In this document: positions 5,089 to 51,459 of the stretch, piece after piece
Layout of the letters: each line of letters begins with the position of its first letter
Position numbering within the stretch: position 1 is the first letter of the stretch
Source: an uncultured Candidatus Saccharibacteria bacterium
GTDB lineage: Bacteria; Patescibacteriota; Doudnabacteria; UBA920
NCBI GenBank assembly: GCA_964597895.1
Contig: CAZQZS010000001.1
Location: 9,238 to 73,237, forward strand
Reading direction: 5' to 3'
Length of the DNA stretch: 64,000 bases
The notes under the pieces: model-generated
What the model was told of the DNA's origin: nothing
The model's input: only the letters and a program-made list of their open reading frames with translations
Database searches by the model: none
Translations under genes and position numbers: made by a program

Positions 5089-5194
5089 GTCATTCCTGGT
5101 CCCACCGCAGGTGGGAACCGGGAATCCACTAGACAGTCAAGATAATTTAATAGATCCCCGGTTCTCCGCGCTTTGCTCGGAGACCAGGGATGAC
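5089..5194. repeat. copy 1 (106 bp) of a dispersed repeat family with inverted termini GTCATTCCTGG ... CCAGGGATGAC
   Basis: Two internal imperfect hairpins. The conserved core AACCGGGAATCCACTAGACAG and ...GATCCCCGG... are shared with copy 2 (9238-9332). Confidence 0.6.
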
Positions 5195-7784: not shown

Positions 7785-8177
7785 ATGGATACTTTTAAGG
7801 GTTATTCGGAGAAGTATTTAGGAGATTATCTACTGCTTGGCTTAAAAGCCACAGCTTTGTGGTTATGCACTGCCATGTTTGTCAGAAAGATCCATATAAT
7901 GTCAGACGTCGCTCTGATTGGTGTATTGATTCTCGGCATAGTCGGTTTAACCAAAATGTGGAAATTAACCAGTAGGCACAGTAATCAGATTTTCCTTAGA
8001 CCTGCTTACTTGGCATTTCTTGGGGTAATGTGCGGTTGGGGTATTACTACACTTGACTGGAACGTCTTGTCTGTCGGCCTCGTGGCTATACTGCTGATCC
8101 CGATTAATTTGTTTATCGGACTTATGATTTGCTGGTTAGCTTTCGAACTTCGACCCATAGAAAAAAGGACTCAGTGA
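7785..8177 (+). CDS. hypothetical membrane protein (130 aa)
   Basis: AAAGGAGG RBS and 3-4 hydrophobic helices. Confidence 0.5.
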   Translation: MDTFKGYSEKYLGDYLLLGLKATALWLCTAMFVRKIHIMSDVALIGVLILGIVGLTKMWKLTSRHSNQIFLRPAYLAFLGVMCGWGITTLDWNVLSVGLVAILLIPINLFIGLMICWLAFELRPIEKRTQ

Positions 8178-8190
8178 GTCCTTTTAATTT
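8161..8190. terminator. bidirectional terminator A6GGACTC-agt-GAGTCCTTTT
   Basis: Hairpin with flanking A- and T-runs between convergent genes. Confidence 0.55.
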
Positions 8191-8753
8191 TAGTTATTTA
8201 CGCGTTCGACGTATGCGCCGCCTTCGCGAGTATCTACGCGCACGACATCACCTTCTTTGATGAACATTGGCGCCTGCACGCTCAGTCCAGTTTCAAGCTT
8301 GACTGGCTTGGTAACGTTACCACCGCTGTTACCGGTTACTCCTGGAGGAGCTTCTATGACTTTAAGATCAACTTTAATCGGCAGTTCTATAGAAACAGGT
8401 TTGCCGTTAAATCGCAAGATGATTACTTTTAAGCCTTCGGTCAAAAATGGTTCTTGTTCGGCTGTAATCTCTTTATCAAAATCAATCGTTTCAAAAGTTT
8501 CGTTATTCATGAAGTGGGTTCCGTCCTCATCCGCATAAAGGAAATTGGCGTTTTCGCGGGTGACGTCGGCACCTTCAACTTTTTCGCCGAATTTGAAGCT
8601 GTATTCTAAAACTTTACCAGTGATGACGTTGCGTAATTTTGCTTGCATTACCGGTTTACGTTGGGCAGTGCGCATGCGGTTAGACCAGATAACCTGGAAA
8701 GGTTCACCGTTCATAAGCACAATAGCACCTAGTTTTACATCGTTAAGATCCAT
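8190..8753 (-). CDS. efp: elongation factor P
   Basis: Full-length EF-P homology (KPGKG-equivalent loop, three-domain length, ...GDVVRVDTREGGAYVERV C-terminus). Confidence 0.9.
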   Translation of the reverse strand: MDLNDVKLGAIVLMNGEPFQVIWSNRMRTAQRKPVMQAKLRNVITGKVLEYSFKFGEKVEGADVTRENANFLYADEDGTHFMNNETFETIDFDKEITAEQEPFLTEGLKVIILRFNGKPVSIELPIKVDLKVIEAPPGVTGNSGGNVTKPVKLETGLSVQAPMFIKEGDVVRVDTREGGAYVERVNN

Positions 8754-8819
8754 CGTTTTATTACTTATATTTTTCTAAATATCTTTATCATTTCCGTTCA
8801 GGCGAGAATCAATTTTTGA

Positions 8820-8847
8820 TTCTAGGATTTAGAATTTTTAATTGCAA
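8820..8847 (-). promoter_or_regulatory. putative efp promoter TTGCAA-N17-TAGAAT (minus strand)
   Basis: Read on the minus strand directly downstream of structured element B and ~65 nt upstream of the efp ATG. Confidence 0.45.
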
Positions 8848-8851
8848 ATTT

Positions 8852-8952
8852 GCCGCCCACTTTTTCGGGGGCGCTCTCATCCGCCTTACGCCCGCCTAAC
8901 AGCGGGCTATGGCGGACTGGCGCTAGCTTACCCCCTCTTAAGTGGGTGGCGG
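8852..8952 (-). ncRNA. copy B of a ~100-nt multi-helix structured hairpin element (structured RNA or REP-like hairpin); strand of function uncertain
   Basis: Outer helix CCGCCCACTT/AAGTGGGTGG encloses nested helices GGGGG/CCCCC, GCGC/GCGC, TCCGCC/GGCGGA, CCCGC/GCGGG and loop TGTTAG. It is the reverse complement of copy A (49897-49993), with compensatory changes in three helices and identical bulges. It lies 15 nt after the rpsR stop and 4 nt before the efp promoter. Confidence 0.45.
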
Positions 8953-8967
8953 AGAAGTGAAATACAA

Positions 8968-9213
8968 TTAAGCGGCCACAAAAGGCACGAGTGCCATGTG
9001 GCGAGCCCGCTTTAGCGCGATGGTAATCATGCGCTGGTGCTTAGGGCAAGACCCAGTGCGGTTGCGGGATAAAATTTTAGAGTGTGGAGACATGAAGCGG
9101 CGCAAAGTTTGGGTGTCTTTGTAGTCTACAGTGCTAACTTTATTAGCACAGAAATAGCAGACTTTTTTGACTGGTGCCGCGTCACGGTCTCGATTGTTCT
9201 TATTGTAAGCCAT
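8968..9213 (-). CDS. rpsR: 30S ribosomal protein S18
   Basis: KKVCYFC...VDYKDTQTLRRF...IALKRARHMALVP is the canonical S18 sequence. Confidence 0.9.
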   Translation of the reverse strand: MAYNKNNRDRDAAPVKKVCYFCANKVSTVDYKDTQTLRRFMSPHSKILSRNRTGSCPKHQRMITIALKRARHMALVPFVAA

Positions 9214-9237
9214 AGTTATAATTGATAATAGTACAAT

Positions 9238-9332
9238 GTCATCCCTGGCGCCGAAGGCGACTGGGGATCCATTAGCTGTGTAGTGGATTCCCGGTTCCTC
9301 GTCCCGCTTTGCGGAACTCGGCCCAGGAATGA
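9238..9332. repeat. copy 2 (95 bp, inverted relative to copy 1) of the GTCATTCC...GGATGAC repeat family
   Basis: Plus strand reads GTCATCCCTGG...CCAGGAATGAC. Its reverse complement shares the termini and the AACCGGGAATCCACTACACAG core with copy 1. Located between ssb and rpsR. Confidence 0.6.
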
Positions 9333-9343
9333 CAAATTTGGAT

Positions 9344-9835
9344 TTAAAAAGGAATATCGTCTACATTAATGTCTTCGCCCTGCTGAATAGTAGGGAGTTC
9401 TTCTACAGGTTCTGGCTGAGACATTGCTGATCCAGCCATTGCGCCTGCGCCTGCACCGGCACCTGCGGCTGCATAGCCTCCGCTGGCACTACCGTCACCA
9501 CGACCGCCATCTAACATAATCATGTTATCAGCGATAATTTCGGTTTTGTAGTTCTTCTTTCCGGTCTGTTGGTCGTCCCAGCTGCGGGTCTGCAAGCGGC
9601 CTTCAATATAGACGCGCTGGCCCTTTTTTAGGTATTGAGCAGCAATCTCGCCGAGTTTACGCCAGAGCACCACATTGTGGTATTCAACGTTTTCTACTTT
9701 TTGGCCAGTTTGCTGGTTGGTGTAGACGAAGTTAGTAGCAAGACCAATCTGACAGACGCTGGCGCCAGAAGGTGTAGTCTTGAGTTCTGGATCACGGGTC
9801 AGACGACCGATGATCATTGCTTTGTTTAAATCCAT
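9344..9835 (-). CDS. ssb: single-stranded DNA-binding protein
   Basis: OB-fold N-terminus (MDLNKAMIIGRLTRDPEL...), a Gly/Ala-rich linker and an acidic DDIPF tail. ATG at 9835 chosen; the ORF track extends 55 codons further upstream. Confidence 0.85.
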   Translation of the reverse strand: MDLNKAMIIGRLTRDPELKTTPSGASVCQIGLATNFVYTNQQTGQKVENVEYHNVVLWRKLGEIAAQYLKKGQRVYIEGRLQTRSWDDQQTGKKNYKTEIIADNMIMLDGGRGDGSASGGYAAAGAGAGAGAMAGSAMSQPEPVEELPTIQQGEDINVDDIPF

Positions 9836-10032
9836 ATTCGTAGTTCCGGTTTCTTGGCCGCAGTTTTCTGCCCGGCAAAGCCGTGCTTGCAAACTGCTTT
9901 TGGCCGATAGCTTTGTCGTTTTACTGCGCTGCTCACTTTGCGTACTTACCAGTACGCGCCGTTCGCTGCTCGTAAAATTCCTCGCTCTCGACCAAACCAA
10001 GGAACCTTGGTTAATGGTTTAAGTTTAAATTC

Positions 10033-10503
10033 TTAAGCGACTTCTTCGTTGAGTGCTTTTTCAATTTCTTCTTCCAACTTTTCGTTGGTCACAGGCGCGG
10101 CCTTTTTGGCCGACTTAGCTTCTTTAGCAGCAGGAGCTTCGCTTGCATCTTCTGCAGGAATGCGTCGCTTGATTTTGGACTGCACGATACGGTCTTTTTC
10201 TAAGCGTTCTAGGTGCTCGTCAATGTTGACGATGATGTGTCGGATGATGTTCGCTTTTTGAGTGCGAATCTTGGCATCCAATGCAGCAAGACCTTTGCCT
10301 TCCATGTCAAAATTGATTACCCCGTAATGACCGTTACGGGTCTTACCAATTTGGTAAGCGAGTTTCTTTTTGCCCAATTGTTCGTGGGCAAGGTTCTGTC
10401 CGCCAAAATCAGCAACCATTTGCTCGATTTGGCTAGACGTGGCAGGTACCTGATCATCAGATACGCTAGAGGCGAGAATGTACATAAGTTCATATCTCGG
10501 CAT
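10033..10503 (-). CDS. rpsF: 30S ribosomal protein S6
   Basis: MPRYELMYIL... S6 N-terminus with an acidic/Lys-rich C-terminal tail. Classic rpsF-ssb-rpsR gene order. Confidence 0.9.
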   Translation of the reverse strand: MPRYELMYILASSVSDDQVPATSSQIEQMVADFGGQNLAHEQLGKKKLAYQIGKTRNGHYGVINFDMEGKGLAALDAKIRTQKANIIRHIIVNIDEHLERLEKDRIVQSKIKRRIPAEDASEAPAAKEAKSAKKAAPVTNEKLEEEIEKALNEEVA

Positions 10504-10717: not shown

Positions 10718-11792
10718 AGACATTGAAGAGAAAGTGTACCACATCGCCGTCTTGAACGACGTATTCTTTGCCTTCGGTGCGGAGCCAGCCTTTGGCTCGG
10801 GCATTGGCATAAGACCCAGCCTCTAAAAGCTTGTCCCAAGCAATGGTCTCTGCGCGGATGAAGCCGTGTTCAAAATCTGTGTGAATTACCCCGGCAGCCT
10901 GCGGCGCTTTGGTACCGGCCGGGCAAGTCCAGGCCTTGCTTTCTTTTGGACCGGCAGTAATGAAGGTGATCAATCCCAAAGTTTTGTACGCAGAAGTAAT
11001 AATCCGATCCAGGCCGCTTTCTTTCATACCAAGTTCATTCATATATTCGGCGCGGTCTGCGTCTTCTAGTTCGGCCAACTCGCTTTCTAGTTTTGCGTCC
11101 ACGACAATGGCATTCTCCGGCAGGGAAGCGGGGATGTTTTCGAACTGATGTGTGTTCATATCAAAAGTTGAATTGAACGCATACAAGAACGGTTTGGTGG
11201 TTAGCAGTTGAACTTCTTTAGCAGCTTCTTTTTCTTCTTCGCTCAAGGTGACTGTGTTGGCCATCTGACCAGCTTCTAGCGCTGTTTTGTACCGTTCTAA
11301 AACACCTTGGCGAATCTTCGCCATCCGGTCACCAGACTTCACTTGCTTCGCATTAGACTCTAAGCGTTTTTCCACGTTGGCTAAATCAGCCAGCTGAAGC
11401 TCGATTGCAATAGTAGCCATATCACGTTCGGCGTCGACGTTGCCAGCCACGTGAATGATGTCATTGTTACTAAAAACGCGAGTCACTTCCATAATGGCGT
11501 CTACTTCGCGAATGTGAGATAAAAATTGATTCCCTAAACCTTCACCTTTGTGCGCGCCGGAAACCAAACCAGCGATATCCACGAACTCTATAGTAGTTGG
11601 AACTATCTTTTCAGATTTTTCTTGAGCTGCTAATTTAGCAAGGCGTTCATCGGGTACGGCAACAACCCCAACGTTTGGATCGATGGTGGCAAAAGGATAG
11701 TTCGCAGCTTCAACCTGCGATTTGGTGATGGCGTTAAATAAAGTGGACTTACCAACGTTTGGCAGTCCAACGATTCCGATTTGAAAGCTCAT
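10716..11792 (-). CDS. ychF: ribosome-binding ATPase YchF (Obg-family GTPase with TGS domain)
   Basis: GIVGLPNVGKSTLFNA P-loop, NVAGNVD G4-like motif, and a C-terminal TGS domain (...GKEYVVQDGDVVHFLFNV). ATG at 11792. Confidence 0.9.
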   Translation of the reverse strand: MSFQIGIVGLPNVGKSTLFNAITKSQVEAANYPFATIDPNVGVVAVPDERLAKLAAQEKSEKIVPTTIEFVDIAGLVSGAHKGEGLGNQFLSHIREVDAIMEVTRVFSNNDIIHVAGNVDAERDMATIAIELQLADLANVEKRLESNAKQVKSGDRMAKIRQGVLERYKTALEAGQMANTVTLSEEEKEAAKEVQLLTTKPFLYAFNSTFDMNTHQFENIPASLPENAIVVDAKLESELAELEDADRAEYMNELGMKESGLDRIITSAYKTLGLITFITAGPKESKAWTCPAGTKAPQAAGVIHTDFEHGFIRAETIAWDKLLEAGSYANARAKGWLRTEGKEYVVQDGDVVHFLFNV

Positions 11793-12004: not shown

Positions 12005-12035
12005 GAGCCCTGCCAATCGCGGGGCTTTTCTTTTC
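12005..12035 (+). terminator. hairpin GCCCTGC-caat-GCGGGGC + TTTTCTTTTC
   Basis: Stem-loop plus U-tract directly after the 32-codon unannotated ORF (11880-11978). Confidence 0.5.
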
Positions 12036-17698: not shown

Positions 17699-17772
17699 GT
17701 CATTCCGGGTCCGCTAAGGCGGGCGAAGAATCTCACGGAGATCCTTCGGTCGCATTGCTCCCTCAGGATGAC
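17699..17772. repeat. copy 3 (74 bp, shorter and more divergent) of the GTCATTCC...GGATGAC repeat family
   Basis: GTCATTCCGGG-[hairpin TCCGC/GCGGG]-AAGAATC-tcac-...GATCC...CCCTCAGGATGAC. Same orientation as copy 1. Confidence 0.5.
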
Positions 17773-17800
17773 AAAGAAATTTCCAGGAATGATAATTGTT

Positions 17801-20169: not shown

Positions 20170-20188
20170 TTTGGTGCCGAGGGAGGGA
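20170..20188. repeat. 19-bp direct repeat TTTGGTGCCGAGGGAGGGA duplicating the 3' end (acceptor/T-stem) of tRNA-Leu 195 bp away
   Basis: Identical to 20384-20402. Followed by a degenerate T-arm-like sequence (GGAGAACTCC) that cannot form a canonical T-loop. Confidence 0.5.
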
Positions 20189-20385
20189 GTTCTCCTCATC
20201 CGTGCTCATGGCGGAGGACTTGACCACCTCACGCTGTGCACAATTCCACTTTGGCAAGCTCAGTGTCATTTCGCACGACGCTGCGGCGGCCCCCGACGCT
20301 TCCAACCTGCCACTGGCAGCTTGGAAGCTGTTTTCAAGTCCCTCAACATAAAACAACAGCCAACCATGAATGGTTAGCTGTTGTT

Positions 20386-20472
20386 TGGTGCCGAGGGAGG
20401 GACTTGAACCCTCACGACCTTGCGATCATACGCACCTGAAGCGTATGTGTCTGCCAATTCCACCACCCCGGC
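20386..20472 (-). tRNA. tRNA-Leu(CAG): tRNA-Leu (anticodon CAG), class II with a long variable arm
   Basis: Reverse complement GCCGGGGTGGTGGAATTGGCAGACACATACGC-TTCAGGT-GCGTATGATCGCAAGGTCGTGAGGGTTCAAGTCCCTCCCTCGGCACCA. Anticodon loop TTCAGGT; encoded CCA. Confidence 0.85.
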
Positions 20473-48520: not shown

Positions 48521-48560
48521 TTAAAACCGCTTTGCGACAAGCTTGAGGCGGTTTTTAGTT
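48521..48560. terminator. terminator-like hairpin AAAACCGC...GCGGTTTTT with a large loop
   Basis: Between convergent genes. The stem ends are perfect but the loop is 17 nt. Confidence 0.5.
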
Positions 48561-49881
48561 AGGCTTTTTTCGTGAGGTGAATTTTAATGGGTGTTCCCCA
48601 GAAGCCAAGTTTTTGTATTATTTGCTTTTCTAGATATCGGCGATATTGCGTGGAGATTGCTGCTGGGTGGTTGACGATCAATTCAAACATTGGAGCGAAG
48701 TTGCCAATTTGGTTTAAGCCGTAAACCTTTGGGGCTTTCTGATCCAGCATGCGGCGTGGTGGGTTTTTTTCTAAGGTGTATGCCAAGAGTCTATCCAAAT
48801 CTTCTTGGGTAATAACCTTAGCCCGAGCATCGTAAATTGGCTTGAGTGCCTTTAAGGCTTCTGTTAGGCCATCGCCAGTTTTCGCAGACACAAAGAATAC
48901 TGGAGCAAACCACAGAAAAGGGAAGTGCTGAGAGACATAATCCTGAAGCTGTTTTTCGTCGCCGTCAAACTGATCCATTTTATTCACGACAATCACCACG
49001 CCGCGGCCCAAGTCTAGGATTTCTCCGGCAATTGCCTGGTCTTGCTTGGTAATAGGCTCCACTGCGTCAATGACGAACATCACTACCTCGCTTTTGCGGA
49101 TTGATTTAAAAGTTTGGAAAACAGAATAGACATCAGGTTGGGCTTGGCGGTAAGACTTCTTTTTTAAACCAGCTGTATCTATCAGGGTAAAGTCAGTGCC
49201 TTCAAAGTTTATCTCCACATCAATTGCAGTGCGTGTGGTTCCAGGGATATCCGAAACTACGACGCGTTCTTCGCCCAAGATTTTGTTGACTAAACTGGAT
49301 TTGCCAACGTTAGGTTTGCCTACAATGGCTACAGGAATCCCAACTGGTTTTTCAGGCTTAGGGATTTTTAATTTTTTGAGCTGTGCGGCAACCTCATCTA
49401 GTAATTCGCCGATGCCGCGGCCGGTTTGCGCCGAAACAGGGAAGATAAGTTTAATGCCTAACCTTTTCCATTCTTCACCGAATTCGCGCAAAGCTTTTGG
49501 CGAGTCAAGCTTGTTGACTGCGAGCACCACAGGCTTAGAGGTTTTGCGAAATTTAATTAAGGCTTTTCTGTCTGTGGTGTTGCTATCGGTTTTGCTGTCT
49601 GCAACGAATAGAATTAAATCAGCTTCGTTTAAAGCTTGATCAATTTGGGTTTCCAGTTCGGCCTCCAACTCTTGTTTGTGTCCATAGGTTAGCCCGGCTG
49701 TATCTACCAATGTAAAATCCACTCCATTCCAGGAAGTGTCTATGTACTGACGGTCGCGCGTAGTGCCTGCTACATCAGAAGTAACAGCAGCGCGCGTGCC
49801 AGCGATCTTATTTAGCAGGGTGGATTTTCCAACATTTGGTTCACCTACTATGGCAACTATAGGTAATCTATTATTTTTCAT
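48559..49881 (-). CDS. der: ribosome-biogenesis GTPase Der (EngA) with two G domains and a KH-like domain
   Basis: Two P-loops (GEPNVGKSTLLN and GKPNVGKSSLVN), two DTAG motifs, and a C-terminal KH-like domain. Confidence 0.92.
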   Translation of the reverse strand: MKNNRLPIVAIVGEPNVGKSTLLNKIAGTRAAVTSDVAGTTRDRQYIDTSWNGVDFTLVDTAGLTYGHKQELEAELETQIDQALNEADLILFVADSKTDSNTTDRKALIKFRKTSKPVVLAVNKLDSPKALREFGEEWKRLGIKLIFPVSAQTGRGIGELLDEVAAQLKKLKIPKPEKPVGIPVAIVGKPNVGKSSLVNKILGEERVVVSDIPGTTRTAIDVEINFEGTDFTLIDTAGLKKKSYRQAQPDVYSVFQTFKSIRKSEVVMFVIDAVEPITKQDQAIAGEILDLGRGVVIVVNKMDQFDGDEKQLQDYVSQHFPFLWFAPVFFVSAKTGDGLTEALKALKPIYDARAKVITQEDLDRLLAYTLEKNPPRRMLDQKAPKVYGLNQIGNFAPMFELIVNHPAAISTQYRRYLEKQIIQKLGFWGTPIKIHLTKKA

Positions 49882-49896
49882 AGAAGTTTATTATCG

Positions 49897-49993
49897 CTAC
49901 CCACTTTAGAGGGAGTAAGCTAGCGCCAGCCGGCCATAGCTCGCTGTCAGGCGAGCGAAAGGCCGGTGAGAGCGCTCCCGGAGAAGTGGGTGG
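49897..49993 (+). ncRNA. copy A of the ~97-nt multi-helix structured hairpin element (structured RNA or REP-like hairpin)
   Basis: P1 CTACCCACTT/AAGTGGGTGG. Nested helices GGGA/TCCC, GCGC/GCGC, (G)CCGGCC/GGCCGG(T), GCTCGC/GCGAGC. Hexaloop TGTCAG. Conserved bulge GTAAGCTA and internal loops CAG/TGAGA and ATA/CGAAA. Two G-T pairs favour the plus sense. Sits between the LCP gene stop and the der ATG. Confidence 0.45.
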
Positions 49994-50016
49994 CTTAACT
50001 GAATTCTGAAATATAT

Positions 50017-51459
50017 TTAATTAGAATCTCCCAAAATAACTATCACATCAACTTTGGTTGGGTCAATTTTAATTCCAGGTGGAGCGAGCGAAACCTCGCT
50101 GGCGTTCAACCGGTTTTTGATTAATTCAATTGTGGCAGCTTTTTGGTTTACAGGATAGACCACATTCTGCTGCAAGGCTTTGCCAGTGTAAATCACTTTA
50201 TAAACTGTTAAGCCATTGGATGTTAATTCTTGTTCTGCCTGTTTGTAAAGTTGTTGTGAAACTGAGCTGTCAGCTAACCAGACAACGGCTTTTTCGGCCA
50301 GGATAGCACCGCTGTCAAAGCTTTCTTTAAAGAAGGAGATGATGTCTTCGGTTCTTTTTCCTGCGCAAGTTGTTAAAACAAACGCGCCGCTTTCTTCCAA
50401 AATTTTAGGACAGATTAGGCCCGTGGCAGGGTCCAGGCTCAGGCTGACCACTTGTTCTGAACCAAAGTCTTTGGTTAGCGTGTAAAGCCGGATCAGTTCA
50501 CCAGGGGTGAGGTTAGTATGGAAATGATCGCCGATAATTGTGAATAGCTCGTTAATCTTACCGGCATCGCCGACAATATTTAATGACACCAGTTTGGTTT
50601 TTGCTGCTTGGATAATCTTTTGTTGCCGCGCGCTACGAGCAAAATCGCTACCTTCAGCTCCAGCAGCATGGCGTGAGCGTGCAAAAATGAGGGCCCGTTC
50701 GCCATTCATGGTTTCCATACCTTCCGTGAAGGTTACGGGAGGTAAGTATCCTTGCGAATCATTCGGGAAAGTATAATCCGTGAAGGTTCTGTCAATTTGC
50801 ACATCAACGCCCCCAAGCAAATTGATCGTCTTTTCAAATCCGTCAAAGTCAATAACTGCAAAGTAAGGGATTTCCAAACCAGACATTTTTTCTACAACAG
50901 CTATAGATGCTTCACCAGCTTTGTTCCAGTCATTGGTGTCGCTGTAAGTTTGTGCAAAGACTGCGTTAATGCGACCTTGGCCAAATTCCTTTGTGTTCAC
51001 TAAATAGTCGCGAGGTATGGAAATCAGAGTCGCTTTGTTTTCATTTGGCTTGAGCTGCGCCACCATGATGGTGTCAGAAAGATATGGTCCGTCGTGTCCA
51101 GGACCGCCGATGCCGAGGAGGAGCACATTAACCTGACCTTCGTTTTCACCAATTAGCTTGCTGCCACTGCCTAGGCTGAGCAGATCAGAGATGCGGCTGG
51201 TCAGGCTTTGACTATTGCCTACGAAGATTTTATCGGCCAAGCTAGTGGATCGCATCAGCACAAATCCGCCGAGGCCGAGCGCCATTAAAATCATCACAGC
51301 TATGATGATTTTTAGGATGCGGCGGCTTTTGCGTTTTGGCGGCTGAGGCTCAGATGATTGGGTTGGGAGGCGGTCGTCGCTCCAATTGCCAAATCTTACT
51401 GGGCCAGATGGGCTGCTGGAAACGCTTTGGCTGTTGATTCTAGGGGAACGTACTTCCAT
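50017..51459 (-). CDS. LytR-CpsA-Psr (LCP) family cell-envelope phosphotransferase with a disordered N-terminus, TM anchor and LytR_C-like C-terminal domain
   Basis: LCP core (...VNVLLLGIGGPGHDGPYLSDTIMVAQL...SIPRD) after a single TM helix. Confidence 0.8.
   Translation of the reverse strand: MEVRSPRINSQSVSSSPSGPVRFGNWSDDRLPTQSSEPQPPKRKSRRILKIIIAVMILMALGLGGFVLMRSTSLADKIFVGNSQSLTSRISDLLSLGSGSKLIGENEGQVNVLLLGIGGPGHDGPYLSDTIMVAQLKPNENKATLISIPRDYLVNTKEFGQGRINAVFAQTYSDTNDWNKAGEASIAVVEKMSGLEIPYFAVIDFDGFEKTINLLGGVDVQIDRTFTDYTFPNDSQGYLPPVTFTEGMETMNGERALIFARSRHAAGAEGSDFARSARQQKIIQAAKTKLVSLNIVGDAGKINELFTIIGDHFHTNLTPGELIRLYTLTKDFGSEQVVSLSLDPATGLICPKILEESGAFVLTTCAGKRTEDIISFFKESFDSGAILAEKAVVWLADSSVSQQLYKQAEQELTSNGLTVYKVIYTGKALQQNVVYPVNQKAATIELIKNRLNASEVSLAPPGIKIDPTKVDVIVILGDSN

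Follow-up and report, generated by a model that had tools for sequence, protein, structure and literature searches.

A hairpin at the rpsR-efp junction

The DNA analyzed here is a stretch of 64,000 nucleotides from an uncultured Candidatus Saccharibacteria bacterium (GenBank assembly GCA_964597895.1, contig CAZQZS010000001.1, positions 9,238 to 73,237 of the forward strand), which we refer to as the window, and its subject is a GC-rich hairpin located between the genes of ribosomal protein S18 (rpsR) and elongation factor P (efp). Reading along the minus strand, rpsF (10033-10503) is followed by ssb (9344-9835) and by rpsR (8968-9213, PF01084, stop codon TAA at 8970-8968), the last gene of rpsF-ssb-rpsR, and then by the hairpin, a promoter-like site and efp (8190-8753). 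These assignments are based on the open reading frames (ORFs) and, for all four genes, on the Pfam labels S6, SSB, S18 and EF-P of the near-identical public contig L003, and they bear out the gene order given in an original prediction that had been made from the sequence alone. That prediction had also described the hairpin as a structure without a U-tract at 8852-8952, 15 nt after rpsR and 4 nt before a promoter of efp, and had named it copy B of a repeated element.

The hairpin was confirmed, with slight corrections to its coordinates. Copy B spans 99 nt (8852-8950, minus strand; 66% G+C), running from G8950 to C8852 within an rpsR-efp spacer of 214 nt in total. The distance of 15 nt is obtained if one counts from position 8952, whereas the first paired base is found 17 nt past the stop codon, beyond a spacer at 8951-8967. 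Within this 17-nt spacer, ACTTCTCC resembles the ACTTCCC that opens the 23-nt rpsR-efp spacer of the related contig L010. The folded RNA consists of four coaxial helices with conserved internal loops and one bulge between them, and its energy of -60.8 kcal/mol compares with -37.4 +/- 3.3 kcal/mol for shuffled sequences (n = 200; z = -7.06), none of the 200 being as stable. A direct reading of the 3' flank, AAAUUUGCAAUU (also given as AAATTTGCAATT), showed that the U-tract is indeed absent.

The hairpin belongs to a small repeat family

The name copy B proved apt, as a repeat search retrieved a second copy that is 85% identical to it. This copy A (49896-49994, plus strand) scored 117 bits with the covariance model R1, which gives 121.6 bits for copy B, and is antisense to both of its neighbors, der (48559-49881, minus strand) and a LytR-CpsA-Psr (LCP) gene (50017-51459, minus strand); the distance is 14 nt to the start codon of der and 22 nt to the LCP stop codon. 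Beyond the window, scanning 185,579 genomes, one for each GTDB species, for the exact pattern returned one further copy as the sole true match. It is carried by L001, a metagenome-assembled genome of an uncultured Candidatus Saccharibacteria (CAZQMO010000002.1), 27 nt after tRNA-Leu(tag) and ~80 nt before ftsH, all on the same strand, and an identical copy of the element is present in L063, whose FtsH is 96% identical to that of L001. Among contigs encoding EF-P relatives, we found a shortened homolog of 82 nt at the rpsR-efp junction of the distant relative L009. It scored 38 bits (E = 1.5e-7) with R1, a model not trained on it, and 61 bits with a second model, R2, a value that is not independent because L009 belongs to the R2 training alignment. 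In the L009 homolog, both basal helices are retained along with the internal loop and the GUAAGC bulge, while the apical hairpin is missing, and its 3' flank reads UAUUUUU. Homologous copies at other loci and in other genomes scored 107-122 bits with the covariance model, and the element has 61-66% G+C as compared to ~44% G+C for the genome. The B, L001 and L009 copies are co-oriented with their flanking genes, whereas copy A is opposite. The public records of the closest relatives carry conflicting taxonomic labels, L001 being listed as Candidatus Saccharibacteria and several close homologs as Candidatus Doudnabacteria or Patescibacteria group. We place the organism of the window in the CPR/Patescibacteria, probably in Saccharibacteria.

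No further or degenerate copies were detected when R1 and R2 were run over ~300 kb of related loci, and rescanning the window with filters off returned the same two copies per 64 kb. Searching the window against Rfam 15 (4227 families) at the gathering score gave three tRNAs as the only matches, none of them at the element, and at E <= 10 over positions 8700-9100 three chance-level matches (E = 4-6) to unrelated families appeared; given these scans without a relevant match, we dismissed signal recognition particle RNA, 6S RNA, riboswitches and ribozymes as possible identities. The single match of a JGI metagenome scan (L002) was rejected as a chance match in a high-GC coding region that has no hairpin, and the 44 loci obtained from IMG/VR were likewise all chance matches in coding sequence, none of which was recovered by the covariance model. 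Using blastn, we found no match to the element in plasmids and phages and, with a word size of 11, none in 5,426 complete Escherichia coli genomes, including their enterobacterial repetitive intergenic consensus (ERIC) elements and other repeats. A full-text literature search, in which the broad query was judged on the top 10 of its 1,588 titles, found no described hairpin, structured-RNA motif or transposable element of the miniature inverted-repeat type (MITE) of Saccharibacteria or Patescibacteria.

Compensatory changes preserve the fold, and G-U pairs favor one strand

Pair statistics were calculated from an alignment of six matches (five distinct sequences) comprising 34 base pairs. Standard pairs are formed in 98.8% of the alignment cells, and 13 of the 34 pairs have changed on both sides. 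When the 3' partners were slid by 1-3 columns as a control, at most two such pairs and 41-52% pairing were left, and none of 500 column shuffles reached the observed values. Copies A and B differ at 15 positions without a single pair being broken: eight of the differences make up four pairs that are compensated on both sides, two produce a wobble or restore a mismatched pair, and the remaining five affect loops. No change is seen among A, B and L001 in the unpaired segments GUAAGCUAGCGCCAG (with the bulge inside it), AUAGC and UGAGAGCGC. The terminal helix, by contrast, varies freely with compensation (GCCACCCAC, GCUACCUGU, GCUGCAUGC), its ends pairing over 10-12 bp, and the most conserved parts of the element are internal. 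Terminal repeats bound by a transposase usually behave in the opposite way; a variable terminal helix combined with invariant loops is characteristic of structured RNAs or of sites recognized by their loops. The alignment further contains a conserved 3x3 internal loop in which AGA is opposite GRA and which, judging from its composition, may form tandem sheared G-A pairs. Tandem sheared G-A pairs are a common protein-binding motif.

Three G-U pairs are conserved. With RNA energy parameters, the aligned strand folds better than its complement by 9-12 kcal/mol in A, L001 and L009 and by 1.4 kcal/mol in B (for copy A, the antisense strand folds with -49.5 kcal/mol), and this asymmetry is mostly gone when DNA parameters are used. 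The conserved G-U pairs single out one strand as the one that folds as RNA. The fold is kept by selection on this strand, and the element most likely acts as RNA. Between L001 and L063, 233 nt are identical, from the tRNA through the 27-nt spacer and the element to a point 20 nt beyond it, whereas the ftsH leader and the 5' coding region differ by ~8%; this identity amid diverging flanks points to constraint rather than to a decaying insertion.

Occupancy of the junctions varies between relatives

The junctions that carry the element are tight in relatives and variable between close strains, and the element occurs in either orientation with respect to the flanking genes. Between the LCP gene and der, the window has 135 nt including the antisense copy A, whereas L061, with a Der that is 90% identical, has 7 nt and L062, with one that is 82% identical, has 3 nt, for which an insertion into a once-coupled gene pair would be the parsimonious reading. 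The Logan contig L060, with a Der protein 99% identical, begins inside copy A. Contig breaks of this sort are what assemblers produce at repeats or at sites of strain variation.

A comparison of the rpsR-efp region in related genomes, which the original prediction had proposed, showed other hairpins in the slot in L012, L014 and L004 and a tight junction in L010, L011 and L015. Relative to the 214 nt of the window with copy B, this spacer measures 15 nt in L015 and 23 nt in L010 and L011; 218 nt in L012, with a short AT-rich terminator-type hairpin and a U-rich tail; 127 nt in L014, with an unrelated hairpin of ~100 nt; 193 nt in L005-L008, with a different structured element; and 121 nt in L009, with the 82-nt homolog. 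A further comparison is provided by L004, whose S18 protein is identical and whose DNA is 96.6% identical from position 11780 down to 8969 and unrelated exactly from the rpsR stop codon onward, where it carries another GC-rich hairpin. For the 98 nt downstream of copy B and for the tail of the L004 contig, no relatives were found among the collected related loci.

A promoter-like site and the question of termination

The TTGCAA-N17-TAGAAT sequence that had been predicted as the efp promoter does begin 4 nt past the hairpin (8819-8847, minus strand, with TTGCAA at 8847-8842 and TAGAAT at 8824-8819), 66 nt before the efp ATG. It matches the consensus at 9 of 12 positions. As a promoter it is plausible, but the statistical support is weak, since the surrounding 5 kb contain 12 such matches as compared to 6.2 +/- 2.5 in shuffled sequences. 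The same -10 hexamer is part of the presumed rpsF promoter, TTGCCA-N17-TAGAAT (10689-10661, minus strand), and TAGAAT is approximately twofold enriched in intergenic DNA, with 11 of its 38 occurrences falling within the 15% of the window that is intergenic. A perfect 8-bp hairpin, AGAATCAA-AAA-TTGATTCT (8805-8823, minus strand), read from the sequence, overlaps the TAGAAT hexamer; it could influence how the proposed promoter is used, or fold in RNA that reads through.

In copies A and B alike, the heptamer TAGAATC sits 28-34 nt past the end of the hairpin; at copy A (50022-50028, plus strand) it is located within the last codons of the LCP gene. Aligning the two 3' flanks gave 16 matches out of 34 (p ~0.04), a value driven by this one common heptamer. 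That a promoter arrived together with the hairpin is therefore suggested as a lead and not as a result. An extended -10-like sequence, TGcTATATT, is also present ~50 nt past the element and ~25 nt before ftsH (L001 5560-5600, minus strand; L063 285-309), meaning that a promoter-like site follows the hairpin in the L001/L063 lineage too.

Whether the hairpin could end the operon was assessed next to the terminators of the window. According to the original prediction, it would act as an operon-end terminator or insulator or as an element of the 3' untranslated region. An RNA-level role in the 3' untranslated region, in processing or in insulation is still the likeliest local effect, but an unusual terminator is unlikely in view of the repeat family, the tight spacers of relatives, the L009 arrangement and the presence of ordinary terminators. 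Copy B is a stable GC-rich hairpin at the end of a unit; copy A is not at a unit end. A U-tract is missing from the 3' flanks of B (AAAUUUGCAA), A (UUAACUGAAU) and L001 (UAAAUGGCUA), and a terminator scan of the window does not list the element. The window does contain a bidirectional intrinsic terminator directly after efp (8163-8185; AAAAGGACTC-loop-GAGTCCTTTT) and further canonical terminators at 12005-12027 and 1151-1175, whose short GC stems stand between runs of A and of U, so that a 99-nt hairpin without a U-tract is not needed for termination. In L009, the element is only 26 nt away from the efp ATG, which is too short for a promoter, and efp must therefore be transcribed through the element there. 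Moreover, with an rpsR-efp spacer of 15-23 nt, efp is plainly part of the ribosomal-protein operon in the relatives concerned, and, at a site this variable, the element hardly resembles an operon end that is conserved. It is most aptly regarded as an intercistronic structure within a message able to continue into efp.

Further structured elements in neighboring spacers

Expansion of spacers is not restricted to the rpsR-efp junction. Those of the rpsF-ssb-rpsR-efp operon measure 197, 130 and 214 nt in the window (8754-10032) versus 33, 14 and 23 nt in L010 (9204-10001) and L011, and each expanded spacer contains a different structured element. In this lineage, structured inserts have accumulated generally in operon junctions, which supports a repeat-element reading of copy B.

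A second family comprises four-way junctions of ~100 nt, in which a closing stem of 11 bp, GTCATTCCTGG/CCAGGGATGAC, encloses three hairpins. Its members lie in the ssb-rpsR spacer (9238-9333, minus strand), in the spacer between a thioredoxin-reductase-like gene and the glutamate dehydrogenase gene (5089-5194, plus strand) and, as a variant, in a third spacer (17699-17793). Relative to the flanking genes, it is the antisense strand that gives the more stable fold, by ~7 kcal/mol, and there is no match in Rfam. The rpsF-ssb spacer contains a third family, a hairpin of ~92 nt, GGTCGAGAGC...CTATCGGCC (9902-9993, minus strand), that recurs with 69% identity in the rpsR-efp spacer of L005-L008 (L005 4096-4186). 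There it is nested in a GGCUUC...GAAGCC stem, which is also seen in the efp leader of L012.

Additional observations concern tRNA genes and a recombinase. At 20170-20472 (minus strand), a tRNA 3' end, ctccctccctcggcacca, is repeated ~200 nt downstream with a GC-rich structured insert in between, and a similar repeat after tRNA-Leu, with gagtccctccttgcccacca duplicated, is found in L064 (9399-9930); by their sequence, these repeats look like small att-flanked insertions. Upstream of the tRNA at 2518-2589 lies a strand-biased, GC-rich tract of ~170 nt (2590-2760; up to 72% G+C in 60 nt), similar in flavor to a sequence of the GAGCGAGC type that L064 has after tRNA-Leu. Several relatives carry a large serine recombinase (Resolvase and Recombinase domains, accompanied by an HTH_17 gene) beside ychF, upstream of the rpsF operon (L004 1-468; L012 4383-6208; L014 4607-6417; L010 17265-18782). 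It is absent at this place in the window, and its distribution suggests a possible integration hotspot beside the rpsF operon.

Comparison with known repeat elements

To our best reading, the element belongs to a broad known kind, the structured intergenic repeat elements that resemble ERIC and Correia sequences. ERIC sequences are imperfect palindromes that occur in intergenic regions and show size variants. The element shares with them the form of an imperfect palindrome of ~100-130 nt, the location in intergenic regions, presumably transcribed here as well, in either orientation, conservation across genera, strain-variable occupancy and short forms created by internal deletion, represented here by the 82-nt L009 homolog without the apical hairpin. 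At the 3' ends of genes, ERIC sequences alter mRNA levels via RNase E (PMC10969869). Unlike ERIC, the element has no sequence similarity in the 5,426 E. coli genomes, belongs to another phylum, is GC-rich in a genome of 44% G+C, has a low apparent copy number (2 per 64 kb) and is characterized by conserved G-U pairs and invariant internal loops. What we observed is therefore ERIC-like behavior, in that the copies are intergenic, occur in both orientations and in size variants, occupy sites variably and are conserved across lineages, and not ERIC membership.

The Correia repeat enclosed elements (CREE) of Neisseria are likewise small hairpin repeats beside genes that are strain-polymorphic and form hairpins in mRNA. 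They can supply promoters at their ends and may be cleaved or protected by RNase III (PMC2649163; PMC10969869). A possible parallel is the promoter-like TAGAAT at an equal offset after both copies of the window, a link that rests on one shared heptamer. CREE differ in having conserved terminal inverted repeats of 26 bp, a TA target duplication and a site for integration host factor, whereas the terminal stems of the present element differ between lineages and a search for a duplication was negative. In its behavior the element comes closest to ERIC, with a Correia likeness in the possible promoter and the RNase III link, and in sequence it is a member of neither.

MITEs are non-coding elements of <500 bp that are AT-rich and multicopy, with a stem-loop transcript, terminal inverted repeats, target duplication and a parent insertion sequence (PMC10969869). 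With its 99 nt, its fold (z = -7) and changes that are compensatory and not codon-like, the element agrees with this description in size and structure, but not in composition, having 61-66% G+C. No consistent direct repeat that could represent a target-site duplication was found at B, A, L001 and L009 (ATC flanks an extended unit at A, but not at B), and no transposase-like ORF was seen in the window, where a Pfam scan of ten hypothetical ORFs gave no match. Repetitive extragenic palindromic (REP) elements, which measure 20-40 nt, reach high copy numbers and are associated with REP-associated tyrosine transposases (RAYT), also differ, as the element has 99 nt and 5' ends reading GCCA, GCTA or GCTG instead of the GTAG type and no Y1-transposase match was obtained. 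The intercistronic RNase III sites of phage T7 and REP elements protect or set the 3' ends of upstream mRNAs. The likeness to these T7-type hairpins and REP 3' stabilizers, which consists in long interrupted hairpins without a U-tract between cistrons that protect the upstream mRNA, is a functional analogy for the action proposed for copy B, and T7 sites are not repeated host elements. Finally, intrinsic terminators share with the element the position of a GC-rich hairpin directly after the last gene of a unit, but those of the window are hairpins of 16-25 nt with U runs, as opposed to ~99 nt with several internal loops.

A proposed processing or protection site in the message

Given these observations, we propose that copy B is a member of a small, previously undescribed family of ~99-nt structured intergenic repeats, carried by a few Saccharibacteria-type lineages of the Candidate Phyla Radiation (CPR)/Patescibacteria, and that it acts at the RNA level as a 3'-end barrier or processing site, a proposal to which we give about an even chance of being correct. 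Copy B would form the end of the rpsF-ssb-rpsR transcript, folding into a very stable interrupted hairpin, which might block 3' exonucleases or offer a cleavage site to a double-strand-specific enzyme of the RNase III type. The ribosomal-protein message would thereby gain a defined and protected 3' end, and efp would be uncoupled from it. In the lineage of the window, efp would then probably be served by the TTGCAA-N17-TAGAAT site just downstream, which perhaps arrived with the hairpin. A gene for RNase III is present in the related genome L064; none was found within the 64-kb window.

Several points weigh against this proposal. The hairpin with its missing U-tract, its position, the family, the covariation, the strand asymmetry and the variable occupancy were observed, whereas transcription through the element, the processing and stabilization by copy B, promoter activity and the manner in which copies spread are all steps that we infer. 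The family rests on four independent loci (five distinct sequences) from ~300 kb of related genomes, and the alignment behind the pair counts was fitted to the model and therefore leans towards structure. The 9/12 promoter-like site before efp is no better than many chance matches. Since the L004 contig ends 58 nt past rpsR, a copy further downstream is possible in that strain. Copy A is antisense to its neighbors, so the strand favored by the G-U pairs may go untranscribed there; no plus-strand promoter was found for it at the 9/12 criterion, and an orientation-independent or DNA-level role would fit this copy better. Lastly, we found neither a mobilizing enzyme nor a duplicated target site, nor terminal repeats that are conserved in sequence.

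Such a DNA-level role could be that of a non-autonomous mobile element recognized as folded single-stranded DNA, in the style of REP/RAYT or IS200/IS605 ends, or of a site for protein binding or recombination, any RNA effects being incidental. Copies in both orientations relative to transcription, close genomes that differ in how a junction is filled, assemblies that break at the element and other structured repeat families in neighboring spacers of the same genome would all agree with it, and a folded DNA strand as substrate would also yield compensatory changes. We nevertheless regard this explanation as unlikely, because the ends bound by a transposase are normally the most conserved parts, whereas the terminal stems are the least conserved ones here, no target-site duplication can be defined, no transposase- or RAYT-like ORF was seen (ten hypothetical ORFs gave no Pfam match), the strand asymmetry appears only with RNA parameters, and the identity of L001 and L063 despite diverging flanks suggests host-level constraint. 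An unusual terminator or insulator of rpsF-ssb-rpsR, in which the hairpin halts RNA polymerase without a U-tract, aided by Rho or another factor, seems similarly improbable. The position of copy B 17 nt past the last ribosomal-protein gene, with a promoter-like site directly after it, speaks for this possibility, as do the other hairpins in the same slot in L012 (AT-rich with U-rich tail), L014 (~100 nt) and L004 (GC-rich), the short terminator-like hairpin that L064 has in the slot after tRNA-Leu where L001 carries the element, and the UAUUUUU that follows the L009 homolog. However, B, A and L001 have no U-tract, ordinary terminators are found elsewhere in the genome, copy A is inside the normally coupled LCP-der pair and in opposite orientation, and invariant unpaired nucleotides would be superfluous for that role; in L009, an efficient stop would silence efp, as 26 nt leave no room for a promoter.

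The features that argue for an RNA could also be explained by a stand-alone or processed small structured RNA acting in trans, for instance as a protein partner, that is cut from transcripts downstream of the highly expressed tRNA-Leu and rpsR genes. Invariant loops with covarying stems, G-U pairs conserved on one strand together with an asymmetry seen with RNA but not DNA parameters, an element that is 100% conserved beside the tRNA while the flanks diverge, and the AGA opposite GRA loop with its presumed resemblance to tandem sheared G-A pairs are in line with this idea. It is nonetheless a poor candidate in our view: the flanks of the copies have no promoter or terminator in common, copy A would require plus-strand transcription antisense to der, none of the 4227 Rfam families matches, and the family is patchy, with no copies in ~190 kb from other sampled relatives and a different sequence after rpsR in the 96.6%-identical strain. 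A related version, which we advance tentatively and consider possible though doubtful, is that of a new structured RNA of the Saccharibacteria clade, in which the invariant bulge (UAAGCUA) and the tandem-GA-like loops would serve as a platform to which a protein or an RNase binds; this RNA would be cut from transcripts near tRNA-Leu and rpsR, spread among operon junctions and be one of at least three structured families that expand tight operons. By comparison, a chance or merely local inverted repeat, which the small copy number might suggest, is ruled out for practical purposes by the folding (z = -7, with 0 of 200 shuffles as stable), by homologs scoring 107-122 bits with the covariance model and by the covariation controls. 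We thus retain the family of structured intergenic repeats acting as RNA as our preferred explanation.

Implications for compact genomes

The genomes of CPR bacteria, including Saccharibacteria, are ~1 Mb in size and regarded as streamlined with tightly packed operons. The window shows otherwise for one lineage, where the rpsF-ssb-rpsR-efp and LCP-der junctions, of 3-33 nt in relatives, hold GC-rich structured elements of 100-200 nt that belong to at least three repeat families. Metagenome assemblies break at these elements, which could also be used to mark strains. We consider the existence of the family more interesting than the claim of an unusual terminator, and the covariance model makes it searchable in other genomes. 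Should the elements work at the level of mRNA, by protecting 3' ends, by processing or by supplying promoters, the expression of core translation genes would have been rewired by them in bacteria that have few classical regulators.

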